Shown piece by piece: positions 24,321-40,248 of a DNA stretch of 64,000 nucleotides (its first letter is position 1; each line of letters opens with the position of its first letter). A program made the position numbers and the translations under genes. The stretch comes from Candidatus Woesearchaeota archaeon (lineage in GTDB: Archaea; Nanobdellota; Nanobdellia; SCGC-AAA011-G17; ARS1403). Location: contig JACPIN010000005.1 in the NCBI GenBank assembly GCA_016188065.1, positions 13,646-77,645 on the forward strand, written 5' to 3'. Under the pieces are notes generated by a model. That model did not search any database. It worked only from the letters and a program-made list of their open reading frames with translations, and was not told the origin of the DNA.

Positions 24321-24437
24321 TGCGGGAGTGCCGGAGTGGCCAAACGGGGTAGAAATTCCAAAATTGCCCGACCTCAAGAATTTGGCTAAGAAAGCTACTG
24401 GCTTAGTGCCTACGCAGGTTCGAATCCTGTCTCCCGC
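24321..24437 (+). tRNA. tRNA-Leu(CAA), class II, with two predicted introns (19 nt at 30/31 and 14 nt at 37/38)
   Basis: Acceptor GCGGGAG/CTCCCGC; 3-bp D stem with 11-nt loop; T arm GCAGG-TTCGAAT-CCTGT. Removing 24352-24370 and 24379-24392 gives anticodon arm GTAGC-CTCAAGA-GCTAC; variable arm GGC-TTAGT-GCC; mature length 85. Confidence 0.6.
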
Positions 24438-24478
24438 AGTTTGGATAAGCATATAAGCCTTAAGATATTTATTTTTAT

Positions 24479-25377: not shown

Positions 25378-26886
25378 TTGAATTTTGTTGTGGCGATGGC
25401 AAAGAAAAAAGGCGTGATTGCTCAGAGCTTGCAGAACTCAATTAAGGATGCAGGCGCTGTTTCTGTGATGGACGGGGCTGGAACTAATTTCGTCAGTCCT
25501 TTTGCTATTGCCATGCAGGCGACTCCTCTGCAAATAGGATTACTGACCTCTATAGCTAATCTTCTTGCACCGTGGTTCCAGATATTTGCAAACAAGCTAA
25601 TGAGAGTTAGAAGCAGAAAATTTATTGTAAGCAGAGCAGTTCTATTCCATGCTTTATTATGGATACCACTAGCTTTGATTCCATTTTTATTTAAAGACTT
25701 ATCGTTGAGAACTTGGAGCGTTGTTTTTTTGTTTGCCTTAATTGCTATTGTCGGCGGCTTTGCAAGCCCTGCCTGGAATTCATGGATAGGGGACCTTGTC
25801 AAAAAAGAAGAGAGGGGAAGATATTTCAGCAGGAGAAATAAGATTGCCGGCGCTGTTGTGCTGATAAGCAGCTTATTTGCGGCGTGGTTTCTGAATTTGT
25901 TCAACGGAGAAAAAAATAATTTAAGTGGGGAAGAGGTTTTAATAGGATTTAGCATTTTATTTTTTATAGCTTTTTTAGCAAGACTAATCTCGAGATATTA
26001 TCTCAACAGACAGTATGAACCTAAATTTAAATATGATCCTGAGAGTTATTTTTCTCTTGGCAGTTTCATGAAAAGATTGAGAAACAGCAACCTGGGAAGA
26101 TTTGTTTTATACAGCGCTTTGCTCAGGGCTGCTGTAACTATCTCTGGCCCTTTTTTTGCTGTCTACATGCTGAGAGAATTGAATTTTAGCTATCCTGCTT
26201 ATATTTCCATGACGGTTGCAAGCTCTTTGGGAAGCATTGCTATCCTTTCTATTTGGGGAAGATTAGTTGATAGATTTGGAACAGTTAAAGTAATTATCAT
26301 AAGCGGAATTATGCTCAGTTTTATCCCTTTATTGTGGCTGGTCAGCAGAAACTGGTATTATCTACTGCTGGTGAATGCTTTTGGCGGCGCAGCTTGGGGA
26401 GGATTTGGGTTGAGCGGCGGGAATTTTATTTTCGACGTTGTTCCAAGGGAAAAAAGATCATTTGCGTTTGCATATTATAATATTTTCATCGGTGCAGGAA
26501 TCTTCATTGGCGCTTCCATCGGCGGATTGATTGCAACACACAGCAGCTTAAAGATTTTGGGAAGTGTTTATCTATTTTTGTTTACTATTAGCGGACTGGC
26601 AAGATTGTTTTTTACCTTGATTTTTGTTTTTGGCTTAAGAGAAGAAAGGAAAGTTGAAGACAAGCCTATTGTGGAAATTGCCGGCACAGAATTGATGGGA
26701 GGCTTTGTCGACGATGTTTTTGTCTTTGTGAACAATGCCTTGCCTAGAAGAGAAGCTATTGAAGAAGCATTGAAAGTGAACAGCATAAAGTTGAAAGAGA
26801 AGAGAAAAATCCTGAGAAGAAGAATATTAAAGTTCAACAGAAAATTCAGCGATAAAAAAGAAAAAAGCTTCTTTACAAAAATTTAA
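25378..26886 (+). CDS. MFS transporter
   Basis: 502 aa, 12 TM in a 6+6 arrangement with a basic central loop; C-terminal K/R-rich tail. Confidence 0.65.
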   Translation: MNFVVAMAKKKGVIAQSLQNSIKDAGAVSVMDGAGTNFVSPFAIAMQATPLQIGLLTSIANLLAPWFQIFANKLMRVRSRKFIVSRAVLFHALLWIPLALIPFLFKDLSLRTWSVVFLFALIAIVGGFASPAWNSWIGDLVKKEERGRYFSRRNKIAGAVVLISSLFAAWFLNLFNGEKNNLSGEEVLIGFSILFFIAFLARLISRYYLNRQYEPKFKYDPESYFSLGSFMKRLRNSNLGRFVLYSALLRAAVTISGPFFAVYMLRELNFSYPAYISMTVASSLGSIAILSIWGRLVDRFGTVKVIIISGIMLSFIPLLWLVSRNWYYLLLVNAFGGAAWGGFGLSGGNFIFDVVPREKRSFAFAYYNIFIGAGIFIGASIGGLIATHSSLKILGSVYLFLFTISGLARLFFTLIFVFGLREERKVEDKPIVEIAGTELMGGFVDDVFVFVNNALPRREAIEEALKVNSIKLKEKRKILRRRILKFNRKFSDKKEKSFFTKI

Positions 26887-26924
26887 AAACTGTTTTTCTT
26901 TGTGTAAATCTTAGTATAGTATTT

Positions 26925-27365
26925 TTAATGCATTTGCTTTAATTTAGAATAAATGCGTTTTGTAAAATATATTACTTTTTCTGCATATGACTTATCTAAA
27001 ATTGTACCGTAGTAGAGCATTCCATTTCTGAAAAACCTCATCTGATCAGCGAATTGCACATCCTTCTCATCAAATTCTAAAACCCTCATATAAGATACTT
27101 CAGCTTCATGCGCCCCAAACCCAGAAGCATTATATCCAGCTAAAAGCATCTTTGCTCTTATTAACTCCATTAATATATCATAACAAGATTTTACAAAATC
27201 ATTGGCATTAGCATCATTCAATTTTATCTTTTGTATTTTCTCCAATAGATTAGTATAACTGTTTTCAGATTCCTTAATCAAAAATTCTGCTCGAGATTTG
27301 TCTGCAGATTGCTTTTTAACAACATTATCTTTTATGAATTCATCAAATTTTCGTATTGCTCTCAT
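26925..27365 (-). CDS. HEPN-like partner protein of the upstream nucleotidyltransferase
   Basis: 146 aa all-alpha; overlaps the NTase gene stop by 4 nt (ATGA), the classical MNT-HEPN arrangement. Confidence 0.4.
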   Translation of the reverse strand: MRAIRKFDEFIKDNVVKKQSADKSRAEFLIKESENSYTNLLEKIQKIKLNDANANDFVKSCYDILMELIRAKMLLAGYNASGFGAHEAEVSYMRVLEFDEKDVQFADQMRFFRNGMLYYGTILDKSYAEKVIYFTKRIYSKLKQMH

Positions 27366-27910
27366 AGCTCAATTCCTCCTGCAAGGACAATTCCATTGTA
27401 CAAGTTTTCTTTCAAATTCTTATGGATATTTTTAAATGAAATGTAAAAATTTATATTTATTTTTCTCTCTAACAATTTTTCATAATTTGTTGTATCAATT
27501 ATTTTATCTTTCCTGCCGATTACTGCAAAATCTATGTCTGAATTTATTGTATCTTCGCCTCTTGAATAGCTTCCGAATAAAATTATTGCAGCTCCTGCAA
27601 ATTCTTTTTCAAGAAAATCTGCAAGCCCGGTTTCATATATCTGTTTTAAGTTGTCTACCATTTTTAGCTGCATTACTTTGTGATTATCCCTGTTCAATTC
27701 TATTGACCACCTTTTTGTTTCTTTGTCCTGATGTATTTTGATTAACTTTTCTTTTTCCAACGCTGGAAGCGCTTTCATTACTGCTGGCTGTGTAACCCAC
27801 AAAAAATTTGATATCTGTCTTTGATTTAGCAGAATTCCTACCTTTACAAATAGGAGCCTTAAAATCTCCTGCTGTAGACTTGTTAACTTTAGTTTATAGA
27901 TATTTACCAT
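27362..27910 (-). CDS. HTH plus minimal nucleotidyltransferase (MNT) fusion
   Basis: 182 aa; N-terminal wHTH; ILFGSYSRGEDTINSDIDFAV (GSxxxGxxxxxSDxD NTase motif). Confidence 0.7.
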   Translation of the reverse strand: MVNIYKLKLTSLQQEILRLLFVKVGILLNQRQISNFLWVTQPAVMKALPALEKEKLIKIHQDKETKRWSIELNRDNHKVMQLKMVDNLKQIYETGLADFLEKEFAGAAIILFGSYSRGEDTINSDIDFAVIGRKDKIIDTTNYEKLLERKININFYISFKNIHKNLKENLYNGIVLAGGIEL

Positions 27911-28015
27911 AGTTAATATATATTAACTTTAGTTTATATATCTTTTGGTTTTGTTTCTAAAATCGAAAATTTTAGCAATATTTAAAAGAAGCTTTTTCTT
28001 TAAAGTTTTCATAAT

Positions 28016-28176
28016 GCCCGGGTAGCTCAGCCTGGAAGAACCCTTTTGGAAAAAGCGTTCACGGAAAATTAAGCTTCACCAAAGAAAGCGGTTCTGGGTA
28101 AATAGAGCACAGATCTTAGCAAAAGAGTGCGACACTCCTAATGCTGGGGCCGGGGGTTCGAATCCCCTCTCGGGCG
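28016..28176 (+). tRNA. tRNA-Arg(CCU) with two predicted introns (67 nt in the D loop at 20/21 and 20 nt at 29/30)
   Basis: Acceptor GCCCGGG/CTCGGGC. Removing 28036-28102 restores the canonical D arm GCTC-AGCCTGGTA-GAGC. Removing 28113-28132 gives anticodon arm CAGCA-CTCCTAA-TGCTG. T arm GGGGG-TTCGAAT-CCCCT. Mature length 74. Confidence 0.55.
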
Positions 28177-28177
28177 A

Positions 28178-28834
28178 TTATTCATTTTTCGAAGTTTTTC
28201 TTCTATGCTTGATATATTCCATGATTGCCGGAATGAACGAGATAATTACAATTATTGCAATTACAAGAGTAAGATTCTCTTTTATATACGCAATGTTGCC
28301 GAAGTAAAATCCTGAAAAAATAAATATTGCAACCCATGCTATTCCTCCAATTACGTTATAAATTAAAAAAGTAAGATAATCCATCTTTCCTATTCCTGCG
28401 ATGAATGGTGCAAATGTCCTAATAATCGGAATAAAGCGTGCAAGCACAATTGTTTTCTTGCCGTGATGATGAAAAAATAATTTTGTTCTTTCGATATGCT
28501 CTTTCTTGATAAATTTTGAAAAAAATTTTTCTCCGAAGTGATAGCCAATCCAATAATTAATGGTGTCTCCTAAAATCGCTGCAATTGAAAGCAATAAAAA
28601 TAACAGATAAACATTTAATGCGCCTGCTGCTGCTAGCGCCCCTGCAATAAAAAGCAAAGAATCTCCTGGAAGGAATGGAGTCAAAACAAATCCAGTTTCC
28701 ATAAAAATGATGAGGAAAAGCAGAAGATAAACAAAGTCTCCATAGCTTTGGATAAGCACAGTGAGAGAAGTGTCTAAGTGAAGAATAAAGTTGATGATGG
28801 ATTTAATCATTTTCCAATTATAAAAAAACACCAT
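28178..28834 (-). CDS. DedA/TVP38-family membrane protein
   Basis: 218 aa; FLPGDSLLFIAGALAA DedA signature. Confidence 0.75.
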   Translation of the reverse strand: MVFFYNWKMIKSIINFILHLDTSLTVLIQSYGDFVYLLLFLIIFMETGFVLTPFLPGDSLLFIAGALAAAGALNVYLLFLLLSIAAILGDTINYWIGYHFGEKFFSKFIKKEHIERTKLFFHHHGKKTIVLARFIPIIRTFAPFIAGIGKMDYLTFLIYNVIGGIAWVAIFIFSGFYFGNIAYIKENLTLVIAIIVIISFIPAIMEYIKHRRKTSKNE

Positions 28835-28931
28835 TAATAAATGTTCAGTTGCTAAAAAAAGAGAACAAATAGCTTTATATATAAGTTCTGCTACTATTTT
28901 GATTTAAGAAGCCGAGAGGTGTAAAAAGAGG

Positions 28932-29669
28932 ATGACTACTCCTTCAAAAATTGTTCAGGGAATGGGTATTAATTTTGAAGAGCCTGTAATTAGGGAAAAA
29001 GAGCAAAAGCAGGATCTTAATAGGTTTAGTAAAATGGTTCCTTTTCTTATGCAAAAAGGCATTGACAAGCTTAACTTAACCATGTTCAGCCCAGAGCTTA
29101 GAAAAGATTTACTGCTTGCAATGGGTGATGAGTATAGGAAAAAAGGAGACTTGTATGATGCTGCAAGAGCGTACCTTTTAGCTGATCATAAAGAAAATTT
29201 AAACCTTATCGGAGAGGATTATGAAGTGTTGATGCAGTGGGATAATTGCGTTGAAGTCTATAAAATGGCTGGAAATAGGTCAAAATTATTGAAGATTGGC
29301 AGGAAATGCATCCAAGATGGAAATTTGAAACAGGCTGCCAAGGCTTTTATGGCTGCAGATGACTCTGATAATCTGCTTATTGTTGGAGAGAAATGCATGG
29401 ACTGCTACAGGTTTGATCAGGCTTTTGAGGTTTTTTCATTCTTACATGACAAGCATAAATTAGTCACACTTGGGATGAGGTGCTTGGAGCACAATGAATA
29501 CCATTATGCAATTAAATCATTTAATGCTGCTGAAGACAAGGAAAAATTAAACTTGACTGGTGATCAATTACTTAAAGAAGAAAAAATAGAGATGGCTTTA
29601 GAGGCATACAAGCTTGCGGACAATCAGCCAATGGTTGCTTTTATCAAGCAGAACTTTATTAATTTTTAA
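28932..29669 (+). CDS. Soluble tandem-repeat protein (four ~38-aa alpha-helical repeats), unknown function
   Basis: 245 aa; repeats with the pattern G-x-x-Y-D/K-A-A-x-A-Y/F-x-x-A-D-x-x-x-N-L-x-x-x-G-E. Confidence 0.35.
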   Translation: MTTPSKIVQGMGINFEEPVIREKEQKQDLNRFSKMVPFLMQKGIDKLNLTMFSPELRKDLLLAMGDEYRKKGDLYDAARAYLLADHKENLNLIGEDYEVLMQWDNCVEVYKMAGNRSKLLKIGRKCIQDGNLKQAAKAFMAADDSDNLLIVGEKCMDCYRFDQAFEVFSFLHDKHKLVTLGMRCLEHNEYHYAIKSFNAAEDKEKLNLTGDQLLKEEKIEMALEAYKLADNQPMVAFIKQNFINF

Positions 29670-29708
29670 TTTCTAAAGATTTTTATATTTGAAAGTTTTT
29701 TACATTAT

Positions 29709-30155
29709 ATGCCAGCAGATATTATTATCCTTTTATACATCCTTGGAATTTTTGCTGCGATTGCTTTTTGGGAGGCTTATATTGAGGGGAAAAATGGGTG
29801 GGCTGCAAATCAAGTTGGCTGGAGGATTAATTTCAAAGTTGGTTTTCTGAAAAGGCCATTGGATGCATATCACTTTTGGAGCTGGCTTGTGATGATTCCT
29901 GCTTTCTTGATGCTTCCGTTTTTGATGTTTGGATTTGACAGGCATTTATTCTGGCTAGTTATAATTGGCCTCTTGCTCGGAACTGTTTTAGAAGATTTTT
30001 TATGGTTTGTTGTGAATCCCAAATTTCCTTTAAGTGATTTTAACCCCAAGAAAGTTTGGTGGCATTACTGGATTGGATTTGGAAGATTTAAAGTACCTGA
30101 GATTTACGTTGTTTATCCTGTTGTTGCTTTGCTGATAGGAATTTTTCTATTATAG
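29709..30155 (+). CDS. Small Trp-rich membrane protein (hypothetical)
   Basis: 148 aa, 4 TM. Confidence 0.3.
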   Translation: MPADIIILLYILGIFAAIAFWEAYIEGKNGWAANQVGWRINFKVGFLKRPLDAYHFWSWLVMIPAFLMLPFLMFGFDRHLFWLVIIGLLLGTVLEDFLWFVVNPKFPLSDFNPKKVWWHYWIGFGRFKVPEIYVVYPVVALLIGIFLL

Positions 30156-31212
30156 ATGCTGCCTGCTCTGCTCCATTAGTTTCAATATTTAATTTATCAA
30201 AATTCTTTTCCAAATCTGGCATTATGGTTATGAACTCCTCAATTATCGACGATAACTGCTGCTTTATCAAGTTTTTTTTCCTTTCAACTAATGAAATCCT
30301 GCTCTTTTCTGCGAAATGCGCGTTTAATTCCTGCTCGATAAAATTAGGTATTGGAAATATCAATGAAGGCTTCTTTAAGGCGATGCATTCTGAAAGCGTT
30401 GAGTGGCCTGCTTGGGTTATTATCCCCTTTGAGGCTTTTAAATACTCCAAAAAATTTTCCTTGAACTGGAGGAAGGTTATATTTCCTTTTGATTCTCCTG
30501 AAATCCCGTATGTAAAAATTATAAATTCCTCTTTTATTTCCGGCAAGATCTCCTGAAGGTTATAGAGAAGCTCTGTTGAAAAATGAGACCCTCCAAACAT
30601 TATAATTATCGGCGGCTTTTCTAGCTTCAATTTTTCCATGAGTTCATGCTTAGACGCCTTCGGCAGCTTCCTTAATACGGGATTTACAAAATTGTAGCCT
30701 CCTGTTAAATGTTCCTCAAAAGTTGGAATTATAATCGGTGTGTTTGATTTTCTTGCTTTGTTGTAAATTAACGAGATGTACTTGTACTGCGCCCAGTATC
30801 TTCTCTTCTTTGACTTAACATATTCCTTGTATTGCAATGGATCGAAGTTAAAAATTACAAAGTGCTGCTTTTTTTTATTCATGTAGAGCGGGAGAGGCTC
30901 AAAATCGCAGATTATAGCGTCGGGATTGAATACTTTAAACAGCCTTCTTAATTTAAAATAATTTTTAAGGCAGAGTATTGGAAGCTTTAGGTTCATAAAA
31001 ATGGTCTTCATCGTCGAGAATCTTGAATCTTTTTCTGGAAATTTCGGACCATCGATTTTTAACGTGGTATATGTGTGCTCGAAATACTCTAATGCATTGC
31101 CATAAGAAGCTACAACGATCTCAGCTCCTTTCTTTTCCAATTCAGACAGGATTGCTGCCTGCCTGATCGCATGGCCATAACCTATTCCAGTTATAACTGA
31201 AACAACTTTCAT
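30088..31212 (-). CDS. GT-B fold glycosyltransferase (GT1/GT28-like)
   Basis: 374 aa; N-terminal VITGIGYGHAIRQAAILSEL resembling the GxGxGH motif of the MurG/MGT families; C-terminal nucleotide-sugar-binding half. Confidence 0.5.
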   Translation of the reverse strand: MKVVSVITGIGYGHAIRQAAILSELEKKGAEIVVASYGNALEYFEHTYTTLKIDGPKFPEKDSRFSTMKTIFMNLKLPILCLKNYFKLRRLFKVFNPDAIICDFEPLPLYMNKKKQHFVIFNFDPLQYKEYVKSKKRRYWAQYKYISLIYNKARKSNTPIIIPTFEEHLTGGYNFVNPVLRKLPKASKHELMEKLKLEKPPIIIMFGGSHFSTELLYNLQEILPEIKEEFIIFTYGISGESKGNITFLQFKENFLEYLKASKGIITQAGHSTLSECIALKKPSLIFPIPNFIEQELNAHFAEKSRISLVERKKNLIKQQLSSIIEEFITIMPDLEKNFDKLNIETNGAEQAASIIEKFLSAKQQQDKQRKSQVL

Positions 31213-31850
31213 TATCTTACCTTCTCAAATTTTTCTGCATACCTGCATTTGTTCTTTATGCCATAATATCTTGCTCTAAATATTACCGGGAGAAACTGCA
31301 GATAAATTGAAAACCATTGGCTTCTGTGCTGTTTTAGTATTTTCATTTTTTTCCAGAAATAATTTGAAATGTCAACATATATTATTGGCCTTTGCGCCAG
31401 CCTTGGCCTTGTCCAAATGCTAAAAGCATAAACCGGATATTTTTTCTTAAGTGAGTCTGCTACTGCCAATACTGCCTCGTTTACAGCCCTATGGTCTGGA
31501 TGCGTTTCTGAATCGGAGACTGTAATAATTTTTTCCGGCTTGTGCATTTCTATTAATTCTTTTATCTTGCCTCTTATGTTTTTCTCCTCTATCTCTTCCT
31601 TAATGCTCATGTCCTTTAAATCAAAATAGATTAGTTTCTTTAGTCCTATTTTTTTTGCTACCTTTTCAGTTTCTTTTTCCCTTATATCTTTAATAACTTC
31701 TTCTTTAAAATGGGGATGCGACATCGCTCCCTTTGAGAAAACTACCTGAATGACTGACTTGCCCTCGTCGATTAGTTTCAGGGCAAAGCCCAGCCCCCCG
31801 ATAGTGAGATCGTCGTCGTGCGGACAGAAAAATATCACATTTTTTGTCAT
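31212..31850 (-). CDS. PIG-L/LmbE-family N-acetylglucosaminyl deacetylase
   Basis: 212 aa; FFCPHDDDLTIGG (HPDDE-type zinc site) and HPDHRAV. Confidence 0.8.
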   Translation of the reverse strand: MTKNVIFFCPHDDDLTIGGLGFALKLIDEGKSVIQVVFSKGAMSHPHFKEEVIKDIREKETEKVAKKIGLKKLIYFDLKDMSIKEEIEEKNIRGKIKELIEMHKPEKIITVSDSETHPDHRAVNEAVLAVADSLKKKYPVYAFSIWTRPRLAQRPIIYVDISNYFWKKMKILKQHRSQWFSIYLQFLPVIFRARYYGIKNKCRYAEKFEKVR

Positions 31851-31873
31851 TTTTATTTTTGGATTGTGTTGAA

Positions 31874-31989
31874 TGCGTCGGCCGGGATTCGAATTTCCGA
31901 ACCTATAAAGGCTTCCCGGATCATCGCCTTGGAAGGGCGAAATTTCAGCCCGTTTGTTTTATGACGCCTGGCCATTGAACTACCGACGC
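31874..31989 (-). tRNA. tRNA-Gly(UCC) with two predicted non-canonical introns (D-loop and T-loop)
   Basis: On the minus strand: acceptor GCGTCGG/CCGACGC; intact anticodon hairpin TCGCC-CTTCCAA-GGCGA; T stem CCGGG...CCCGG interrupted by about 21 nt before TTCGAAT; about 22 nt of extra sequence in the D loop. Exact splice boundaries are uncertain. Confidence 0.45.
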
Positions 31990-32022
31990 TCATTATGCTG
32001 GAAGAATTTTTAGTTTTTAAAA

Positions 32023-34605
32023 TTATTGTTTCTTGCTGTTTAATTTACTGAATGCATATTCTACCTGCTGCCTGCTCCACCCTCTTTCCAGCAAAGAATC
32101 AGCAATCTTCTCCTCATCGTATCCTTTATCCAGTGCTGATTTTATGTATGACCTGACTTTTGCCAACTCTACTCCTGACTTGAACGGAGATTTCTTGAAT
32201 CTTGAAGAAAGTAAATTTATCACTTCGTATAATTTTAGCTTCTGATAGAGCTTAAATTTATAAAATGCAAATCCGAGCCCTAAAATTAAAATTACTGTGA
32301 CTATAAATGGAATCCATGGAAATCCAGATACAACTACTTTTTCTTCTCTGCAATCCTCTGGGCAGGAGATAATGTCCTCTGCTGGATTGCAAACTCCATC
32401 GCCGCAGTTGAAGGGGATTAAGCTTGGAGAAAGCTCTTTTGGAATTACAACCAATACAGCATCTTTAACACTATTAATATTGTTGGAATGCAGCTTGTAG
32501 GAAAATGAAAATGAGTCTTTTAAAACTGGTATTGTGAACTTTGCACTTTGATAATCCTGCAGCCTTGTTATTTCTGGAAATGAATCTGTGAACTCAATTT
32601 TGTCTTGCGAAGATGCCAGCGAAGTTGGAATTAACTCAATTATGATTGCTTCCCTTATTTCCAGCGGAGTTGTTATAGTTTTCTTTACTAAAATAAAGCT
32701 TTCCTGCTTATTTGGATATGATAATGAAACTGCTGTTGCCGCCACTTCTTTCTGAAGCCTTGAATTTAATTCCTGCAATGTAGCCTTGTAGCTTTCTGTC
32801 TCAAGACCATATAACTTGTTAGTTTCTTCAACTGAAAGATAGGGTGTTATCGTTATTTTATTTACAGCTGTTATTGACGTCGGTATTGAATTTATGAGGT
32901 CATTAACTTCCTCTTCTGTCAATGTTGTTGACGATGACAGCGTTGAAATAGAACTATCTATTTTTTTACCTAAAGCAAGGCTTTCAAAAATCTCTTTTGT
33001 TGCCGGCATGGATAATTTATCTTTAATTGACTGCAGCCTTGAGATTGCTTCCTGAACTAACTCTGTTTTTGCCTTCTCTGAAAATATTTCTACCTGCAGC
33101 GTTTTTTCATCTGATATTCCATTTTCGTCTGTGACTATTAATTTAACTAAATAAACTTTTGGAAGTAGATATGAATGCGTTGTTGTCTTTGCATTAGCTG
33201 TAGTGTTGTCGCCAAAATCCCAGCTGTATGCCAGTTTGGAATCTGATTTTGAGCTTGATGCGTCGAATGTTATTGGCGTCAGCGTTGGTGCAAATTGCTG
33301 TGATATGTTAAAACCTGCTGCTGGCGCTGAGACTACTTGTATGTTTGCAGTTGCTGCTTCAGCCCCATACTCGACTTTTAATGTATAATTTCCAAGGTTT
33401 TTAGGAGCAAAAAGATCAAATTTTGAAACGGGAATTACTGCTTTTGATGATAGTTTATAATATGGCTTTTCTCCTTGTGAGTTCACTCCCAGCAAAAACT
33501 TATTTCTATTATAGGATTGCCCATCTTCAAGAGTTTCTGTGTAAGACAAATCATGGATCTTTACATTGTTTCCATTTTTAGCTGTCACATTAATTGGGAT
33601 TATACAGAAATCATCTTGATATGTACATGCCTGCAGGAAATTTGCGATTGCGTCTTTGAAATATTTTTCTTGAATTGTGTTTGATTCGAAATATTCCAGA
33701 GATTCTTGCAGCGTTGTTATGAAATTTGAAGATTTTGCCTTTATTGCATAATCTGTGTTTTGTATTTTGCTGCATGACGAAGCTGTGCATCTATATCCTT
33801 GTGAGTTAGATACAGAGTCATTTACAGCTAAAACAATTCCTGCTGAAGGCGCTGTCAGGCATATTTTATAATCTCCTTCATTAATTGGAGCAGAAGTTGA
33901 AATCGTACATTCTATTTCGGTAAATGTTTGCTGCAAAGAACTGCATGATTGCAGATTTGTTTCTATTCCTTGTATATATATTCCTAAACTTGGTGGGGCG
34001 GTTATTGATTTTTTTATTGCTGAGCTAATTCTGAATGTGTCTGATTTGTTCAAAAATATTTGCTGGCAGGTTCCTGTAGAATCCAAATTCAATTCTGTTG
34101 CATCGGCTGCATTAATTTCTGCTCCTTTATATTGATTCACATTCCAATCGATAACTGCCGGTGATTTTCCCTGGAATTCCCAGTCTATTATCCCATCATT
34201 GCCTACATCCACTCTTGGAGTGTCTGGATAATTTGCATCCGAATTTGATATATTGAATTTTGCATCAATGCCAATTGTCGAACCTTTTTTTATCCTGATT
34301 CCCGTTAGAAAGTTTGACGAGTTTATTTCTGTTGCTGTTGCTCCTGTGTAAACAAAATACTCTGAAGACTTTTCCTCGCATCCAGATGTGCAATTTATTA
34401 CTTGCTGTATCTGCTTTTCTTTTGAAACTGAATTTATTGAAACCTTTATTGTAGAATCTTTGCTGTAAGCCCCTTCCTGCAAGATAAGATTTCCCGATAA
34501 TTGCTTTTCCTTTCCTGCTTTTGACTCGTTGAAATCAAATGAAACAGCCATAGCCGTGCTTGCAAAAGCTATTAAGACAATCAAAAAGACTAGTTTCTTT
34601 AGCAT
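32023..34605 (-). CDS. Large secreted cell-surface protein with PKD domain and C-terminal TM anchor
   Basis: 860 aa; signal peptide; PKD-like segment (PITFDASSSKSDSKLAYSWDFGDNTTANAKTTTHSYLLPKVYLVKLIVTDENG); C-terminal TM (IPFIVTVILILGLGFAFY) plus cytoplasmic tail. Confidence 0.55.
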   Translation of the reverse strand: MLKKLVFLIVLIAFASTAMAVSFDFNESKAGKEKQLSGNLILQEGAYSKDSTIKVSINSVSKEKQIQQVINCTSGCEEKSSEYFVYTGATATEINSSNFLTGIRIKKGSTIGIDAKFNISNSDANYPDTPRVDVGNDGIIDWEFQGKSPAVIDWNVNQYKGAEINAADATELNLDSTGTCQQIFLNKSDTFRISSAIKKSITAPPSLGIYIQGIETNLQSCSSLQQTFTEIECTISTSAPINEGDYKICLTAPSAGIVLAVNDSVSNSQGYRCTASSCSKIQNTDYAIKAKSSNFITTLQESLEYFESNTIQEKYFKDAIANFLQACTYQDDFCIIPINVTAKNGNNVKIHDLSYTETLEDGQSYNRNKFLLGVNSQGEKPYYKLSSKAVIPVSKFDLFAPKNLGNYTLKVEYGAEAATANIQVVSAPAAGFNISQQFAPTLTPITFDASSSKSDSKLAYSWDFGDNTTANAKTTTHSYLLPKVYLVKLIVTDENGISDEKTLQVEIFSEKAKTELVQEAISRLQSIKDKLSMPATKEIFESLALGKKIDSSISTLSSSTTLTEEEVNDLINSIPTSITAVNKITITPYLSVEETNKLYGLETESYKATLQELNSRLQKEVAATAVSLSYPNKQESFILVKKTITTPLEIREAIIIELIPTSLASSQDKIEFTDSFPEITRLQDYQSAKFTIPVLKDSFSFSYKLHSNNINSVKDAVLVVIPKELSPSLIPFNCGDGVCNPAEDIISCPEDCREEKVVVSGFPWIPFIVTVILILGLGFAFYKFKLYQKLKLYEVINLLSSRFKKSPFKSGVELAKVRSYIKSALDKGYDEEKIADSLLERGWSRQQVEYAFSKLNSKKQ

Positions 34606-34656
34606 TAATATCCCTCTTTATTGCTGTAGAAAATATATTTCTTTTTATATAAATAT

Positions 34657-35178
34657 TTACTTTTTGAATTCTTTTCCTTTTGCTGACGGGATGATTTGGA
34701 TTTTTGCATTGCTGAATTTCGCATTCAGTTCTTCCCCCCTTAAAATCACGTGAAGGAAAACTGCCAGTGCTGAAACTTCTGAAATCGGCTGTTGAGTAAC
34801 TGAAACATTGTAATCTGATTCTTTAAAAATTTCAGGAGGTACTTTTTCTCCTCCAACAATGACTAGAATATCTTTCTGGACTTTTATTTTTTTTAAAATG
34901 GAATTTAATGTTAAGCCATAAACAGATAAATGGATTATTAAAAATTCTTCATCCTTTTTTTCATTAATCAGCTTTACTGGATCTTCAATGTGCTCTATTT
35001 TGAAATTCCCTCCAAACTGGCTTGTTACTTTATTTATTGTTGCCTCTAAAGAAGAATCTTTATCTCCAGAATAATATATTTTTGAAGCCAAGAATGCCCT
35101 TGCTGTTAGTGCTAGATGCGTTGATAATCTTGGATCTCTTCTAATCCTATGAGATAAGCGAAGAATTTCTATTTGCAT
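34657..35178 (-). CDS. tRNA (cytidine56-2'-O)-methyltransferase aTrm56 (SPOUT)
   Basis: 173 aa; LRLSHRIRRDPRLSTHLALTARAF and VGGEKVPPEIF...TQQPISEVSALAVFL closely parallel Pyrococcus aTrm56. Confidence 0.85.
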   Translation of the reverse strand: MQIEILRLSHRIRRDPRLSTHLALTARAFLASKIYYSGDKDSSLEATINKVTSQFGGNFKIEHIEDPVKLINEKKDEEFLIIHLSVYGLTLNSILKKIKVQKDILVIVGGEKVPPEIFKESDYNVSVTQQPISEVSALAVFLHVILRGEELNAKFSNAKIQIIPSAKGKEFKK

Positions 35179-35230
35179 TTTAATTTAATAAAGGATAGTT
35201 ATTTAAATATATTTAGCAGATTTTTTTATA

Positions 35231-36124
35231 ATGAATTGGGAAGAATTTTTAGAGAAGCACTATAAGAAACTTTTTGTAGTTCCTGCAATCATGCTGATAT
35301 TTAGTCTGATTGTTGTCGGAATTTTTTTAAACAAAACTGGAGAATTGTTCTACAGAGATGTTAGCTTGAAGGGCGGGATCAGCGCAACGGTTTATGAGAA
35401 AGGCATTGATGCTGAGAAGCTTGAAAAATTTCTTGAAGATGAGCTGGGGACAGATGTGTTTGTCAGGAAGCTTGGAGACATTGCGACAGACAGCGACATC
35501 GGCGTTGTCGTCGAGATTGGCGATGAAGCCACTGGTGAATTGAAAAAACTTATAGAGGAAAATATTGGAAGAGGATTGAATGAAAAAAATTTCAGCATTG
35601 AGCAGGTTAGCAGCAGCCTCGGAGAGAGCTTCTATAACGGCCTGCTTAAGGCAGTGGTGATTTCTTTTGCATTAATGGGGCTTGTTATTTTTGTCGCCTT
35701 CAGAAGCTTTGTCCCAAGCGCTGCGGTGCTATTAAGCGCTTTTCTTGATATAGTATTTCCGCTTTCCATTATGGAGCTGGCGGGAGTAAAGATAAATGCT
35801 GCCGGCATTGCTGCTTTCCTGCTTGTCATAGGATATAGTGTAGACACAGATATACTACTAACAGTTAAAGCATTAAAAAGAAAAGAAGGCAATATTTATC
35901 AGAGGATCATTGATTCTGCAAAGACTGGCTTAACTATGACTTTAGCTACTGTCTGCGCTTTAGGTATTGCTTACTTTATCACAACCAGCTTTGTGCTGAA
36001 GCAGATGTTTATGATTATTGTGATTGCCTTGCTTGTAGACATTGTTTCAACTTATTTCATGAACTCTGGAATATTAATCTGGTATTGCAAGAAACGAGGA
36101 GAAAATGAAAAGTTTTGGGGTTAG
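35231..36124 (+). CDS. secF: Protein-export membrane protein SecF
   Basis: 297 aa; N-terminal TM; DVSLKGGIS (the LDFxGG-type motif); six C-terminal TM helices of the SecDF fold. Confidence 0.7.
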   Translation: MNWEEFLEKHYKKLFVVPAIMLIFSLIVVGIFLNKTGELFYRDVSLKGGISATVYEKGIDAEKLEKFLEDELGTDVFVRKLGDIATDSDIGVVVEIGDEATGELKKLIEENIGRGLNEKNFSIEQVSSSLGESFYNGLLKAVVISFALMGLVIFVAFRSFVPSAAVLLSAFLDIVFPLSIMELAGVKINAAGIAAFLLVIGYSVDTDILLTVKALKRKEGNIYQRIIDSAKTGLTMTLATVCALGIAYFITTSFVLKQMFMIIVIALLVDIVSTYFMNSGILIWYCKKRGENEKFWG

Positions 36125-37832
36125 GATTAACTTGCTTATATTTATGCTGATCTTGTCTTTCATAGCAATAGCTCCCAGACTTAGTGTTGACGGCGTTGAG
36201 ATAAAAAGCTTGGACGTTGTAAGCAAAAGCCAGGGGCTTGGCATCGGAGAGGTTGTAAAGAGCATTGGTGATGCAAATGTGGATAGCCCTGAGAAATTTG
36301 CTGAACTTCTGAAGGATGCCAGTTCTGTCAAGCCTGTGAAGATAAATATTGTTACTGATAAGAATAATGCAAGCTATTTTGCACAAGATGATTTATTGTT
36401 CGAGCTTGATAATTTGACTATCAAGAATTCTAAAATTGGAAACATTAGAGACGGAGAGATGCTGAAAGAGATAAATAATGTTAAGATTGAAAGCATTGAT
36501 GATTGGGAGAGGATTAGATACGAGCTACTGCCAAGCAAAATTGTGAGGATTAAAACCGACAAGAAAGAGTATGTTTTTCAAGTGAACAAGGAAATTGAAA
36601 TAAATGTAAAAGAAGTAAGCAGAAGCAATATCAGGAAAGGCTTGGACCTTGAAGGTGGAACTAGAGTTTTATTAAAGCCTGTTGGGGAGACCAAAGCAAG
36701 CGATCAAGACATTAGAAATTTAATCGATGTCATTTCTGACAGGCTTGACATTTATGGATTAGCAGACAAGAGGATAAGGGCTGCTGATGTCGGCGAGGAT
36801 AAATTAATTCTGATTGAAATTGCAGGCATATCCAAGGAACAGGTTGAAGACTTTATTGCGACACAAGGAAAGTTTGAAGCCAAAATCGGGAATGAAACTG
36901 TTTTTACCGGAGGCAATGATGTTCCATTTGTGTGCAAAGATGATGGAACCTGCTCTGGAGTCAGGAGCTGCAGTTCAGTGAGTGAAGGACAATATGGATG
37001 CAGGTTTGAGTTCAGCATTAAGCTAAGCATTGAAGCTGCCAAAAGGCATGCTGAAATAACAAAAAAATTGGACGTTGTAAGCGGAAGCGGAGTTAGCGGC
37101 GAGGGGTATTTGAGCAAACCACTTGAATTATATCTTGATAATGAGCTGATTGACAGCCTGCAAATCTCCTCCAGCTTGAAGGGCAGCGAGACGACTGATA
37201 TTCTTATTTCTGGAAGCGGGTTTGGCGAGAATCAGGATGCTGCACTGAATGATGCTTTGTTAAATATGGAAAAGCTGCAGACGGTTTTAATTACGGGAAG
37301 CCTTCCATTCCAATTAGAGATTGTAAAAATTGACAGCATCAGCCCAATATTCGGAGAGGAGTTTTTGAAGAACGCGGTCCTTTCCGGCGCTGTTGCAGTG
37401 GTTGCTGTTTTAATTGTAGTGTTTATCCGCTATAGAAATTTCAAAATTATCTTTCCTATGATGATCACTCTATTAAGCGAGATATTTATCATACTTGGAT
37501 TTGCCGGGCTATTCAAATGGAACTTGGATTTAGCTGCGATCGCGGGAATAATTGCTTCTGTCGGCACTGGAGTAGATGACCAGATAGTGATTGCAGATGA
37601 AATATTAAGAGGGAAAGAGCAGTATTTCAACTGGAAAGAAAAATTAAAACGGGCTTTCTTTATAATCCTCGTTGCTTATGCTGCTACATTTGCTGCAATG
37701 CTTCCTTTGATATGGGCTGTTGCCGGCTTATTGAGGGGATTTGCAATTGCAACCCTTGTTGGAGTTACAATTGGAGTATTTGTTACTCGCCCTGCATTTG
37801 GTGCAATGCTTGAAAAACTCATGAACAAATAA
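36105..37832 (+). CDS. secD: Protein-export membrane protein SecD
   Basis: 575 aa; large periplasmic-type domain; GLDLEGGTRVLL motif; C-terminal 6-TM SecDF domain; overlaps secF by 20 nt. Confidence 0.75.
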   Translation: MKSFGVRINLLIFMLILSFIAIAPRLSVDGVEIKSLDVVSKSQGLGIGEVVKSIGDANVDSPEKFAELLKDASSVKPVKINIVTDKNNASYFAQDDLLFELDNLTIKNSKIGNIRDGEMLKEINNVKIESIDDWERIRYELLPSKIVRIKTDKKEYVFQVNKEIEINVKEVSRSNIRKGLDLEGGTRVLLKPVGETKASDQDIRNLIDVISDRLDIYGLADKRIRAADVGEDKLILIEIAGISKEQVEDFIATQGKFEAKIGNETVFTGGNDVPFVCKDDGTCSGVRSCSSVSEGQYGCRFEFSIKLSIEAAKRHAEITKKLDVVSGSGVSGEGYLSKPLELYLDNELIDSLQISSSLKGSETTDILISGSGFGENQDAALNDALLNMEKLQTVLITGSLPFQLEIVKIDSISPIFGEEFLKNAVLSGAVAVVAVLIVVFIRYRNFKIIFPMMITLLSEIFIILGFAGLFKWNLDLAAIAGIIASVGTGVDDQIVIADEILRGKEQYFNWKEKLKRAFFIILVAYAATFAAMLPLIWAVAGLLRGFAIATLVGVTIGVFVTRPAFGAMLEKLMNK

Positions 37833-38010
37833 ATTTATAAATGATAAGAGATATATATTGAAAGAGGTGATTATTTAATGGTTGATGCTAATACAATTAT
37901 GCTTTATGTTATTGTTGGAGCAGTTTTCGGCATTGTTTACGGCTTGAGAAGGATCTATGTTATTGAGAGAAAAATAGATGCTATCGATAAAAGAATTGCA
38001 CAAGTATTGG

Positions 38011-38766
38011 TCAAGAAGAGGAAGAGATAAATTCCTTTCTTGCTTTTTCTAAGGTTTCTGGTGTGCCTATATCGAAATATTTCCCTCCAATCTTAACTCC
38101 ATAAATCGTATCTTTTTTATAAAGCCACTGTAAAAAATACCCGGGGGCATCTGGATTATTACCTTCGTTCAAATACAATTTAATTTTATTAATTGATTTT
38201 TTCTTTAGGAGATAAACTACATGCGCAATGAGTTTTGATTTTGGATTCTCTGGCTTTTCTATCAATGAAATAATTTTAGAGTCTCTGTCCAAATCTACTA
38301 CCCCATGTTTTTTTGCTTGCTCTAATGTAGGCAATTCGACTATTACTATAACATTTTCATTTTTTTCTTTGAAATAATCGTAAACCGGATTTAGGCTTGA
38401 ACTGAACAAATTATCTCCGGCGATAATAAGAACATCTGAATTAATATTTTCTGAACTCAAAACAAGATTTATATCTCCTATAGCTCCAAGCTTATCTTCT
38501 TCATGCAGTGTACCATCATTAATTATCTTTATATCTAATTTTGTTTTCAAATTATCTTTCCATCTGACAAAATGATTACAGTAGCGATTATTTGTCACGA
38601 CATAAACTTTGTTTATTTCTTTAATAGGCTCTAATTTCTCGACGATGTTTGTTATCACTGGCTTTCCTCCCACCTCCAGCAACGGCTTTGGGAAATTTTT
38701 TGTTAATGGATATAATCTAGTACTGTATCCTGCTGCCAGTAAAATTACATCTATATCCTTTTTCAT
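38011..38766 (-). CDS. Sugar-phosphate nucleotidyltransferase (NDP-sugar pyrophosphorylase)
   Basis: 251 aa; ILLAAGYSTRLYPLT (the GxGTRLxPLT signature). Confidence 0.8.
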   Translation of the reverse strand: MKKDIDVILLAAGYSTRLYPLTKNFPKPLLEVGGKPVITNIVEKLEPIKEINKVYVVTNNRYCNHFVRWKDNLKTKLDIKIINDGTLHEEDKLGAIGDINLVLSSENINSDVLIIAGDNLFSSSLNPVYDYFKEKNENVIVIVELPTLEQAKKHGVVDLDRDSKIISLIEKPENPKSKLIAHVVYLLKKKSINKIKLYLNEGNNPDAPGYFLQWLYKKDTIYGVKIGGKYFDIGTPETLEKARKEFISSSS

Positions 38767-39632
38767 CTTATTTTCAACCCTCCGTTTAAAATTAGCTGAA
38801 TTATTTTTATATTATTCTCTTCGAATACTGGCTTTAATTTATTTTCCAGATCCAGAACTATGGCTGCCCCTCCAGACCCTGTTTGATTTGCAAACCCTTT
38901 ATTTTTCAATATTAAATCCTTTACGAGCTTATCCTCTTTTGTCAACCCGAGAGTTGATTCCCTGATTTCCCAGTTGTTATTCATCAGCAACCCTAACCTT
39001 TTCCAATCCATTTTTTGGAGTGCTGCATGCGCATCTAGTGTTATCTCCCTTGTTTTTTTCATGAGAGAGATAAATTCTTCACTGCCCTTTTTCTTTCCAT
39101 TATTATGGATGTCTTTTGAAGTGTTATTTTTTCCATAATAGACTATGTACATTCCCTGAGGGATTGATGTTAGCTTTTGGCAGGTAAAATTTTTACAGTC
39201 AATCAATGAGGAGCCAAAAACTGCAACGGCCCTGTCCTGCCATCCTGCATTTATTTTTAATTCTCTTTCTATCTGCAGTGCATGCTTTGAGATATCTGTC
39301 AGGGAAAGATTCAAATTGAATCTCTTATTCAAACATGCTATTAATGAAACTAGAATTGCTGCTGACCCTCCAAGACCGCACTTGAATGGAATATCCGACG
39401 AATAATCTATTTTTAAAGGCGCAGCTATATTGAAATGCTTTAGTGCCTGATGTATAAGCTTATGAGTTGAGTCTAGATTAGTTTCAGAATTAATTATGAG
39501 CTTATTTGAATCATCTAATTTCACTATGGCTTTGTTTTTTATTGAATAAGCAAGGACTAGCGCATCTTCCAAGTAAACATCTCCTGGATTTCCTGTAACT
39601 GCTGCCCTTCCTGTCGCCTCTGCCTCTATCAT
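38763..39632 (-). CDS. GHMP-family sugar kinase
   Basis: 289 aa; PFKCGLGGSAAILVSL GHMP ATP-binding motif; coupled to the downstream NDP-sugar pyrophosphorylase, consistent with a sugar-1-kinase. Confidence 0.7.
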   Translation of the reverse strand: MIEAEATGRAAVTGNPGDVYLEDALVLAYSIKNKAIVKLDDSNKLIINSETNLDSTHKLIHQALKHFNIAAPLKIDYSSDIPFKCGLGGSAAILVSLIACLNKRFNLNLSLTDISKHALQIERELKINAGWQDRAVAVFGSSLIDCKNFTCQKLTSIPQGMYIVYYGKNNTSKDIHNNGKKKGSEEFISLMKKTREITLDAHAALQKMDWKRLGLLMNNNWEIRESTLGLTKEDKLVKDLILKNKGFANQTGSGGAAIVLDLENKLKPVFEENNIKIIQLILNGGLKIR

Positions 39633-39685
39633 CGAAAATTTTTCTTAAAGATATGTTTAAATAACTTTTCTTTAATTTTTATTTT

Positions 39686-40096
39686 ATGCAACAAGTTTAT
39701 TTACATGCTTTATTTGCTTTTGCATTAGCAGCAATATTGTATCCTTTTATCGGCAATTACAGCATTGTTGTTTTCCTGAGCGGATTTGTCTTTGACATTG
39801 ACCACTACATCTATTACGCTGCCAAAAAAAGAGATTATAATCTTATGAACGGGTATTTTTATCACGTCCCCGGAAGCAAGGTTCATGAGGAGCACAGCGA
39901 TTCACTTCATATCTTTCATACTTGGGAGATGTGGCTGCTGCTTTTTATTCTTGGTCTTTTGATACACGAGATATTTCTATTCACATTAATAGGAATTATA
40001 TTTCACATGATTTTTGACTGGGGATATTTGCTTTTCAACAGCGATGCACTAGGCGAGAGAGCTTGGTCATTAATCGGATGGATTTCAAGAAACTAA
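39686..40096 (+). CDS. Small His-rich membrane protein (possible membrane-bound metal-dependent hydrolase, DUF457-like)
   Basis: 136 aa, 4 TM; His-rich loops (HYIYY, HEEHSDSLH, FHMIFDWGY). Confidence 0.3.
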   Translation: MQQVYLHALFAFALAAILYPFIGNYSIVVFLSGFVFDIDHYIYYAAKKRDYNLMNGYFYHVPGSKVHEEHSDSLHIFHTWEMWLLLFILGLLIHEIFLFTLIGIIFHMIFDWGYLLFNSDALGERAWSLIGWISRN

Positions 40097-40097
40097 A

Positions 40098-40106
40098 TTT
40101 TATAAA
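40098..40106 (+). promoter_or_regulatory. Archaeal TATA box for tRNA-Ser
   Basis: TTTTATAAA about 27 bp upstream of the tRNA start at 40129. Confidence 0.45.
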
Positions 40107-40128
40107 GCGGGATTTCTTGTTTTCTTAT

Positions 40129-40248
40129 GCCGAGATCGCATAATCTGGTATTGCGCAGGTCTTGAATGAAACTTTTAGAAAAAGCTTCACCAAAAATAAG
40201 ATAACCTGTTCCCGAGAGGGTATCTGGGTTCAAATCCCAGTCTCGGCG
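40129..40248 (+). tRNA. tRNA-Ser(UGA), class II, with a 36-nt canonical (37/38) intron
   Basis: Acceptor GCCGAGA/TCTCGGC; 3-bp D stem with 11-nt loop; anticodon arm CAGGT-CTTGAA[intron 40167-40202]A-ACCTG; variable arm TCCCGAGAGGGTA; T arm TCTGG-GTTCAAAT-CCCAG. Confidence 0.75.

Follow-up and report, generated by a model that had tools for sequence, protein, structure and literature searches.

A short hairpin repeat shared by tRNA introns and intergenic sequences in Woesearchaeota and related DPANN archaea

Similar introns are found in different tRNAs of the Thermoproteales, and intron transposition has been inferred from their likeness (work of 2010, as summarised in PMC4033280 and PMC3239211). 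For the DPANN archaea, broad-specificity splicing endonucleases and heavily disrupted tRNA genes have been reported (PMC5829648, PMC3239211), along with unexplained gaps in the tRNA sets (PMC5829648). Such endonucleases and gaps fit a lineage that tolerates insertions in its tRNA genes. The origin of the non-canonical archaeal tRNA introns is still an open question, similar introns having been read as products of transposition with neither a donor nor a vehicle identified; to our knowledge, the Thermoproteales work reported neither a donor pool nor a DNA-level vehicle. In bacteria, the repetitive extragenic palindromic (REP) sequences and the REP doublets forming hairpins (REPINs) are imperfect palindromes of 20-40 nucleotides (nt) with conserved mismatches, which occur in many copies and often just past stop codons; we know of no REP in a tRNA intron. 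The subject of this report is a stretch of 64,000 nt from Candidatus Woesearchaeota archaeon (contig JACPIN010000005.1, positions 13,646 to 77,645 of the forward strand), in the following called the window, where an intron of tRNA-Arg(CCT) and the intron of tRNA-Ser(TGA) contain copies of one and the same short hairpin.

The reading that we favour, with a probability of roughly 0.58, is that of a dispersed hairpin repeat, similar to REP sequences or to miniature inverted-repeat transposable elements (MITEs), which spreads at the DNA level and for which tRNA introns are one niche among others. The initial annotation of the window had proposed that the two introns are homologous through transposition or duplication. 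The sequence is indeed homologous and its spread at the DNA level is the likeliest cause; what the introns have in common, however, is a hairpin repeat and not an intron. Thus, the introns are related, yet not by way of simple intron-to-intron transposition. As in the Thermoproteales, similar introns cluster across tRNA species and non-canonical positions, and the lineage is one where splicing endonucleases are of broad specificity, many tRNAs have several introns and recent intron gain is inferred. Unlike in the Thermoproteales, the similar sequences are not confined to introns: most of the 90 matches of a covariance model of the element (R1, described below) are intergenic, follow a tRNA or stand in arrays. 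The host is moreover of the DPANN/Woesearchaeota lineage, and a defined hairpin of 32 nt that is abundant outside tRNA genes points to a donor pool and to a vehicle acting on DNA.

The two genes, with the parts on which the argument rests, are the following.

28016-28176, plus strand: tRNA-Arg(CCT) gene with two introns; ARAGORN calls Arg(cct) on the 75-nt cloverleaf left after in-silico intron removal
28036-28101, plus strand: D-loop intron of tRNA-Arg, 66 nt, after G19; from minimum-free-energy folds, the 3' boundary being inferred to within 1-2 nt
28036-28069, plus strand: repeat copy a, subfamily i; model R1, 52.6 bits, E = 4e-12
28071-28083, plus strand: 13-mer site in tRNA-Arg, a partial second copy (3' arm and tail, in subfamily ii form); exact match and folds
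28085-28095, plus strand: distal arm AAAG-C-GGTTCT, a third partial copy of the 3' arm; folds and pair counts on five orthologues
28113-28132, plus strand: second tRNA-Arg intron, 20 nt, position 29/30, free of the repeat; manual reading followed by in-silico splicing
40129-40248, plus strand: tRNA-Ser(TGA) gene with one intron; Rfam tRNA model, 44.6 bits, and ARAGORN
40167-40202, plus strand: canonical 37/38 intron of tRNA-Ser, 36 nt; ARAGORN with introns allowed, in-silico splicing and fold
40165-40197, plus strand: repeat copy of tRNA-Ser, subfamily ii; model R1, 47.2 bits, E = 1e-10

Intron-aware ARAGORN runs and in-silico splicing disclose three intron-bearing tRNA genes in the window, Leu(CAA), Arg(CCT) and Ser(TGA), all on the plus strand. 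Neither default ARAGORN nor Rfam in gathering mode called any tRNA in the window, so that intron-aware runs and manual splicing were needed. Judged from sequence, the Arg, Ser and Leu introns would all qualify as archaeal introns of the bulge-helix-bulge (BHB) type, in that their removal restores a canonical cloverleaf. The shared motif, therefore, lies within introns and not in exon sequence, as had been proposed; furthermore, the spliced D-arm of tRNA-Arg, GCTCAGCCTGGATAGAGC, is that of an intron-less tRNA-Arg(CCT) at locus L094 (labels of this form denote loci or contigs from genome and metagenome scans compared with the window).

The unit common to the two introns is an imperfect palindrome of about 32 nt with an A-rich tail, GAAC.C.CTTTT-RGA-AAAAG.C.GTTC-AC(GG/CA)AAAA, in which an outer stem of 4-5 bp is followed by a conserved 1x1 mismatch, a C-G pair, a T4-6/A4-6 run, a loop of 3 nt and the tail AC(GG/CA)AAAA. 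The ACGG tail of subfamily i is the commoner form, and ACCA is found only in subfamily ii. In copy a the hairpin occupies 28038-28060 (GAAC.C.CTTTT GGA AAAAG.C.GTTC) and the tail, ACGGAAAA, 28061-28068; the same intron then holds a second, partial copy, AAGCTTCACCAAAG, and a third, AAAGCGGTTCT. In the tRNA-Ser intron a single nucleotide precedes the repeat and a linker of 6 nt, TAAGAT, follows it; the hairpin of this copy lies at 40168-40188 (GAA.A.CTTTT AGA AAAAG.C.TTC), its tail, ACCAAAAA, at 40189-40196, and the repeat copy differs in 1 nt from that of the orthologue L164.

Attention had been drawn to this locus by a 13-mer, AAGCTTCACCAAA, and by the longer strings TTTTGGAAAAAGCGTTCACGGAAAA (28044-28068) and TTTTAGAAAAAGCTTCACCAAAAA (40173-40196). 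All were found where they had been placed, with the 13-mer common to the Arg D-loop and Ser 37/38 introns, at 28071-28083 (within the second partial copy) and 40182-40194, and with no further exact copy on either strand of the 64 kb. The 13-mer is, however, a fragment only, namely the 3' arm and tail of the larger hairpin unit. The statement that a match of 13 nt is very unlikely by chance needs a distinction: a repeated 13-mer as such is ordinary in an AT-rich window that contains 348 direct 13-mer repeat pairs, whereas only about 0.002 pairs are expected to have their two members both within intron sequence (155 nt). In addition, when the Arg and Ser introns were shuffled 5000 times, a common substring of 13 nt or more turned up once, and in 20,000 shuffles their local alignment score of 33 was never equalled. 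The best alignment reaches beyond the 13-mer and matches the entire Ser intron with copy a in the first half of the Arg intron (28043-28073), as CTTTTGGAAAAAGCGTTCACGGAAAATTAAG against CTTTTAGAAAAAGC-TTCAC-CAAAAATAAG.

Copies in other genomes were collected by a pattern scan of species-representative genomes, which gave at least six loci in archaeal metagenome-assembled genomes (Nanoarchaeota, Aenigmatarchaeota, unclassified archaea and one labelled Thermococcaceae), and by a refined pattern scan of metagenome contigs, which gave 56 stretches. Subfamily ii pattern matches in coding sequence (LLEKASPK-type peptides, e.g. L176, L149 and L152) were left out of the context statistics. The covariance model R1, built from 30 instances (consensus AAGAACCCTTTTAGAAAAAGCGTTCACGGAAAA and variants), has two strong matches in the window, both in introns, the next best scoring 15.5 bits, and 90 copies in 292 kb of DPANN-type contigs (Nanoarchaeota/Woesearchaeota and Aenigmatarchaeota), with at most 12 per contig. 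The stem is 92% paired and shows 36 double-sided changes against 9.3 in shuffles, as high a value being reached in 0 of 500 shuffles and all slid controls being beaten, on an alignment that was fitted to the model, so that the result leans towards structure. Searches against Rfam gave no family for the element, either for the window or for 14 loci, and no match at E < 1 for the intron sites; a full-text search for the element sequence in the papers of the library returned no match.

Across related genomes most R1 copies lie outside tRNA genes, and a sizeable minority form most of a tRNA intron. The former occupy short spacers and adjoin or overlap the stop codon of a co-oriented gene (TAG|AACC, aTGAacc), with an offset of -3 to +1 from the stop codon in 12 of about 19 copies that come first in an array; their 3' end often falls 0-7 nt ahead of the next ATG. 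The 5' neighbour is co-oriented in 27 cases and opposite in 4, the 3' neighbour co-oriented in 18 and convergent in 11, and the flanking genes are separate, ordinary housekeeping genes (aRF1, ScpB, L31e, glycosyltransferases). Tandem arrays occur in L143 and L154, and in L144 and L127/L014 the repeat starts exactly past the discriminator base, or 3' end, of a tRNA. The intron instances recognised by in-silico splicing number 12, at three loop positions of nine tRNA genes: in the D-loop of tRNA-Arg in five genomes, of tRNA-Met in L038 and of tRNA-Phe in L130; at 37/38 of tRNA-Ser(TGA) in two genomes, of tRNA-Ser(GGA) in L162 and of tRNA-Met in two genomes (L038, L167); and in the T-loop of tRNA-Ser(GGA) in L162 and of tRNA-Ile in L007. 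Sense intron copies begin 0-2 nt past the 5' splice site; the tRNA-Phe copy in L130, unlike the others, is antisense.

As a separate observation, at L122 7129-7260 and L173 5040-5140 a larger conserved helix (TTCTGCCAT ... ATGGCAGAA) carries the repeat in its loop; the DNA there is non-coding, the orientation is antisense to the neighbouring genes and Rfam gives no match, and the arrangement could be an intron-like insert in an unannotated RNA.

The abundance of the repeat changes markedly from one relative to another, with 12 copies per 12.7 kb at one extreme and 0 per 21 kb at the other. At syntenic aRF1-ScpB sites (67-84% protein identity) it is present in L154 and L182 and absent in L183-L185; in about 140 kb of the window's own lineage, Woesearchaeota-like by the names that the closest DedA homologues bear, strong R1 matches occur only in tRNA introns. 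The condition that had been set against homology of the introns, namely that the motif be a common repeat outside introns, thus holds in related genomes but not in the window, where the two introns are its only sites. In L130 the intron copy is near-identical to an intergenic copy 4 kb away, both having the form GAAACTTTTTAAGAAAAAGTTTCAT.AAAA and both departing from the general consensus, and within single contigs several stem variants stand side by side. The repeat is dispensable, as it is absent from the window spacers, from most of about 80 kb of relatives and from the orthologous gene ends in L183-L185. A 12-nt D-loop intron in L167 resembles the 46-nt intron of L038 minus the hairpin, a comparison that shows only loss.

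Among the five orthologues of tRNA-Arg, the exons are near-invariant, the anticodon stem showing a compensatory change. Inside the D-loop intron, by contrast, the sequence is mutated in L168 and rearranged in L179, the counterpart of the 13-mer copy is different in L168 and L139, and the 13-mer copy itself occurs in the window alone. This decay of the motif makes a conserved splicing signal unlikely, and the initial annotation's alternative of a common protein-binding or processing signal is poorly supported. The repeat-free 29/30 intron of the same gene, with a clean helix-bulge-helix (hBH) motif (H2 GCAC/GTGC, H3 TCTT/AAGA), is present in the window, L168 and L179 and precisely absent in L178 and L139, where the D-loop intron is kept; as aligned, these close relatives are cleanly polymorphic for the presence or absence of a non-canonical intron.

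The minimum-free-energy fold of the Arg D-loop intron is that of a relaxed BHB: the D-stem, A14 opposite AAATA, a 4-bp helix H2 of GCCT (28030-28033) with GGGT (28096-28099), the GGA bulge and a long inner helix H3, the bulges measuring 3 nt on the 5' and 5 nt on the 3' side. The inner helix beside the splice sites is formed by the 5' arm of the repeat (28037-28046) with the distal arm, and CCA of the 13-mer (28079-28081) pairs with TGG (28047-28049) in H3. Compensatory changes in the orthologues turn a C:G pair of H2 into U:A and a U:A pair of H3 into C:G. As to whether the motif lies in a conserved stem-loop, covariation supports pairing of the 5' arm with the distal segment of the intron, but not pairing with the motif. 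In tRNA-Ser, H2 consists of CTTG (40161-40164, positions 32-35) and TAAG of the linker (40197-40200); the 3' bulge AT|A is canonical, the 5' site lies in an asymmetric 3x8 loop and the hairpin begins 1 nt past the 5' cut. In these models both junctions would form a BHB with a central helix of 4 bp, the Ser one likewise in relaxed form.

How the repeat could be accommodated in a tRNA gene may be pictured as follows. It would persist where extra sequence is harmless, that is, at the 3' boundaries of genes and in tRNA introns. In the pre-tRNA its 5' arm would make the inner helix of a relaxed BHB, and a short 3' linker, or an extra partial copy of the 3' arm, would pair with the exon or with the 5' arm; through this pairing, it is proposed, the splicing endonuclease could excise the whole insert. 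The 13-mer identity between Arg and Ser would then reflect common descent within the repeat family. Recent conversion or slippage may also have contributed, since a partial 3' arm occurs three times in the Arg intron.

Several points weigh against DNA-level spread of the repeat. The analysis identified neither a transposase nor a target-site duplication nor terminal inverted repeats for it, and no pair of near-identical genomes offered a strict case of an empty and a filled site. The sense bias (27 versus 4) and the tight abutment on stop codons would sooner suggest a selected signal at gene ends than insertion at random. The primary sequence, loop and tail included, is near-identical across contigs of 25-47% GC, a degree of conservation that is unusual for purely selfish repeats. 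The intergenic copies come mostly from genomes other than that of the window, and the repeat may have created these introns or have landed in pre-existing ones.

A more far-reaching proposal, which we regard as tentative and on balance doubtful, is that a mobile palindrome acts as the vehicle of tRNA intron gain in DPANN archaea. Insertion into a tRNA loop would at once yield a spliceable intron of the relaxed BHB type, because the 5' arm would give the inner helix and an extension of the palindrome the linker complementary to the exon; the same unit would colonise gene ends or serve as their punctuation, and short non-canonical introns would be decayed copies. Whichever reading applies, a searchable unit (consensus, covariance model and contexts) now ties tRNA introns at three loop positions to an intergenic repeat family of DPANN archaea, which offers a concrete candidate vehicle and makes intron gain testable.

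The best of the rival explanations, which we nonetheless hold to be unlikely, regards the hairpin as a functional RNA signal at gene ends (a 3'-end stabilising, processing or termination signal, or an intercistronic element) recognised by a conserved factor; its occurrence in introns would be due to the same activity, e.g. a cut or block just 5' of the hairpin, or to the derivation of introns from gene-end modules. The orientation of the neighbours is that of a 3'-end element and not of a promoter, the 5' gene being co-oriented in 27 of 31 cases and the 3' gene in 18 with 11 convergent, and the exactness of placement, at the stop codons of housekeeping genes such as aRF1, ScpB and L31e, shortly before the next ATG, past tRNA discriminator bases and past 5' splice sites, agrees with a recognised signal, as does the upkeep of loop and tail in genomes of very different GC content. 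Against it, the hairpin is found in no intergenic spacer of the window, nor in most of about 80 kb of close relatives, nor at the orthologous gene ends in L183-L185. The hairpin also has no U-tract behind it and hence is no classical intrinsic terminator; among the intron copies one is antisense, in orthologous introns the motif is seen to decay, and several stem variants occur in one genome.

Classical intron-to-intron transposition or duplication, as in the Thermoproteales, with the intergenic look-alikes being unrelated, appears improbable. It would account for similar introns in different tRNAs or positions of one genome, as seen in the Arg D-loop and Ser 37/38 introns of the window, in the two introns of a single L162 tRNA and in the two of L038. 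Intergenic and post-tRNA copies, however, score 40-54 bits with the same model, equal to the intron copies; genome-specific variants are common to intergenic and intron copies (L130); and the introns share the hairpin unit alone, not the splice-junction parts. Lastly, chance similarity of two A/T-rich, low-complexity introns, for which the 348 chance-level 13-mer pairs of the window and the same 24-mer in an unrelated repeat of Acetobacteraceae might be quoted, can practically be dismissed given the shuffling results, the expectation of about 0.002 intron-intron pairs and the 47-53 bits of the two sites, against 15.5 bits for the next best of the window, with a model trained mostly on other genomes.

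The Acetobacteraceae sequence just mentioned is a very high-copy palindrome of about 70-85 nt, often at contig ends and with no Rfam match, found in L003-L121 (Novacetimonas, Komagataeibacter, Gluconobacter and Acetobacter). The 24-mer, TTTTGGAAAAAGCTTCACCAAAAA, is the same as in the archaeal element, and the identity, though striking, is probably a coincidence between palindromes with A/T runs.

When the dispersed repeat is set beside the bacterial REP sequences, the likeness lies in a short, multi-copy extragenic palindrome of 20-40 nt with conserved mismatches and a covarying stem, often placed just past stop codons in short spacers, in clusters or arrays, with lineage variants and patchy abundance, all of this in the relatives and not in the window. 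The differences are that the flanking dinucleotides vary, that there is no 5' tetranucleotide of the GTAG type, that the host is archaeal, that arrays are direct where REP sequences form inverted doublets, and that a strong sense bias is seen. No transposase of the Y1 type or REP-associated tyrosine transposase (RAYT) was found among the neighbouring genes examined, where only a TnpB-like open reading frame (ORF) occurs, at the end of L184. With the box C/D small RNA of the archaeal tRNA-Trp intron the element shares the character of a recurring RNA module inside tRNA introns; it differs in having no C/D boxes, in not being conserved in orthologous introns and in lying mostly outside introns.

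There is also a likeness to the integration of mobile DNA at tRNA genes (att duplications; split-tRNA models of Randau and Soll; Sugahara 2012, PMC3293823), as the repeat stands beside duplicated tRNA 3' ends in L094 and L127/L014 and, in the window, a 1.1-kb cassette lies 5' of tRNA-Arg, with relatives having a duplicated 5' fragment. The intron copies, unlike integrated elements, are tiny, encode no recombinase and are predicted to be removed at the RNA and not the DNA level. The duplicated 3' fragments of tRNA-Arg (T-loop to 3' end; L094 1-200, L127 1-420 and L014) lie 80-100 nt apart with the hairpin repeat in between, and in L127/L014 the unit made up of fragment, repeat and GC-rich hairpins recurs in tandem; these arrangements resemble scars of the att type or the outcome of serial duplication at the 3' ends of tRNAs. 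The cassette of about 1.1 kb (26903-27990) lies between tRNA-Arg and an apparently orphaned tRNA-Arg promoter (26868-26902), which is near-identical to the sequence directly upstream of tRNA-Arg in L139. It carries two minus-strand ORFs (26925-27365 and 27362-27910), the second a nucleotidyltransferase (PF01909). A duplicate of the first 16-19 nt of tRNA-Arg, lost in the window, stands at the cassette's far end in L168 and L179 and resembles an integration scar.

Other identities of the hairpin were considered and rejected. An mRNA intron splitting a gene, suggested by an element that spans from stop to start codon, does not apply to flanking ORFs that are separate, complete genes (e.g. L31e and DUF192). 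A promoter of leaderless genes (TTTTAGAAA, which in 10 cases would stand some 26 nt upstream of the following ATG) disagrees, as a general role, with the 11 copies that face a convergent gene, the constant feature being the co-oriented upstream gene. A tRNA-like minihelix ending in ACCA fits subfamily ii only, the commoner subfamily i having ACGG. An intrinsic terminator is contradicted by the A-rich tail past the hairpin in the sense direction, the T4-6 run lying inside the 5' arm. A true MITE, usually of 50-500 bp, is not compatible with a unit of about 32 nt that has no flanking direct repeats and whose 3' linker is complementary, not identical, to the upstream exon. For an integron attC site, of 57-141 nt, the element is too short, GTTCACG is unlike GTTRRRY and the flanking genes are housekeeping genes (aRF1, ScpB, L31e). 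Finally, a box C/D small RNA is rejected as neither the C box (RUGAUGA) nor the D box (CUGA) is present in either intron, and no match to Rfam was obtained.

The remaining tRNA gene of the window has introns of its own.

24322-24438, plus strand: tRNA-Leu(CAA) gene with two introns; intron-aware ARAGORN, and in-silico splicing calls Leu(caa)

Its introns, 24353-24371 (position 30/31) and 24379-24392 (about 37/38), are both free of the hairpin repeat. An intron-less tRNA-Leu in L144 (1240-1324), whose 3' half is near-identical to that of the window gene, is directly followed by two tandem copies of the repeat. That standard tRNA finders overlook all three tRNA genes of the window fits the reports of seemingly incomplete DPANN tRNA sets, and masking of the hairpin repeat could recover hidden tRNA genes.

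A few further features were met in the course of the comparison. At 28459-28545 of the window (plus strand) there is a weak match to the box C/D-like snoU30 (27.5 bits, E = 0.9), starting with UGCCGUGAUGAUGA and lying antisense inside a DedA gene, which is probably due to chance. The cysteinyl-tRNA synthetase is encoded by two overlapping ORFs of 239 and 261 amino acids in L180 (16028-17525) and L181 (15985-17482) and by a single gene of 450 amino acids in L183 and L185; the split could reflect a frameshift, programmed or not, or an assembly error. Several aRF1 homologues of Woesearchaeota (P0126, P0156, P0167 and others) have about 495 amino acids, the usual length being 361, and contain an intein-splicing domain (PF14890).

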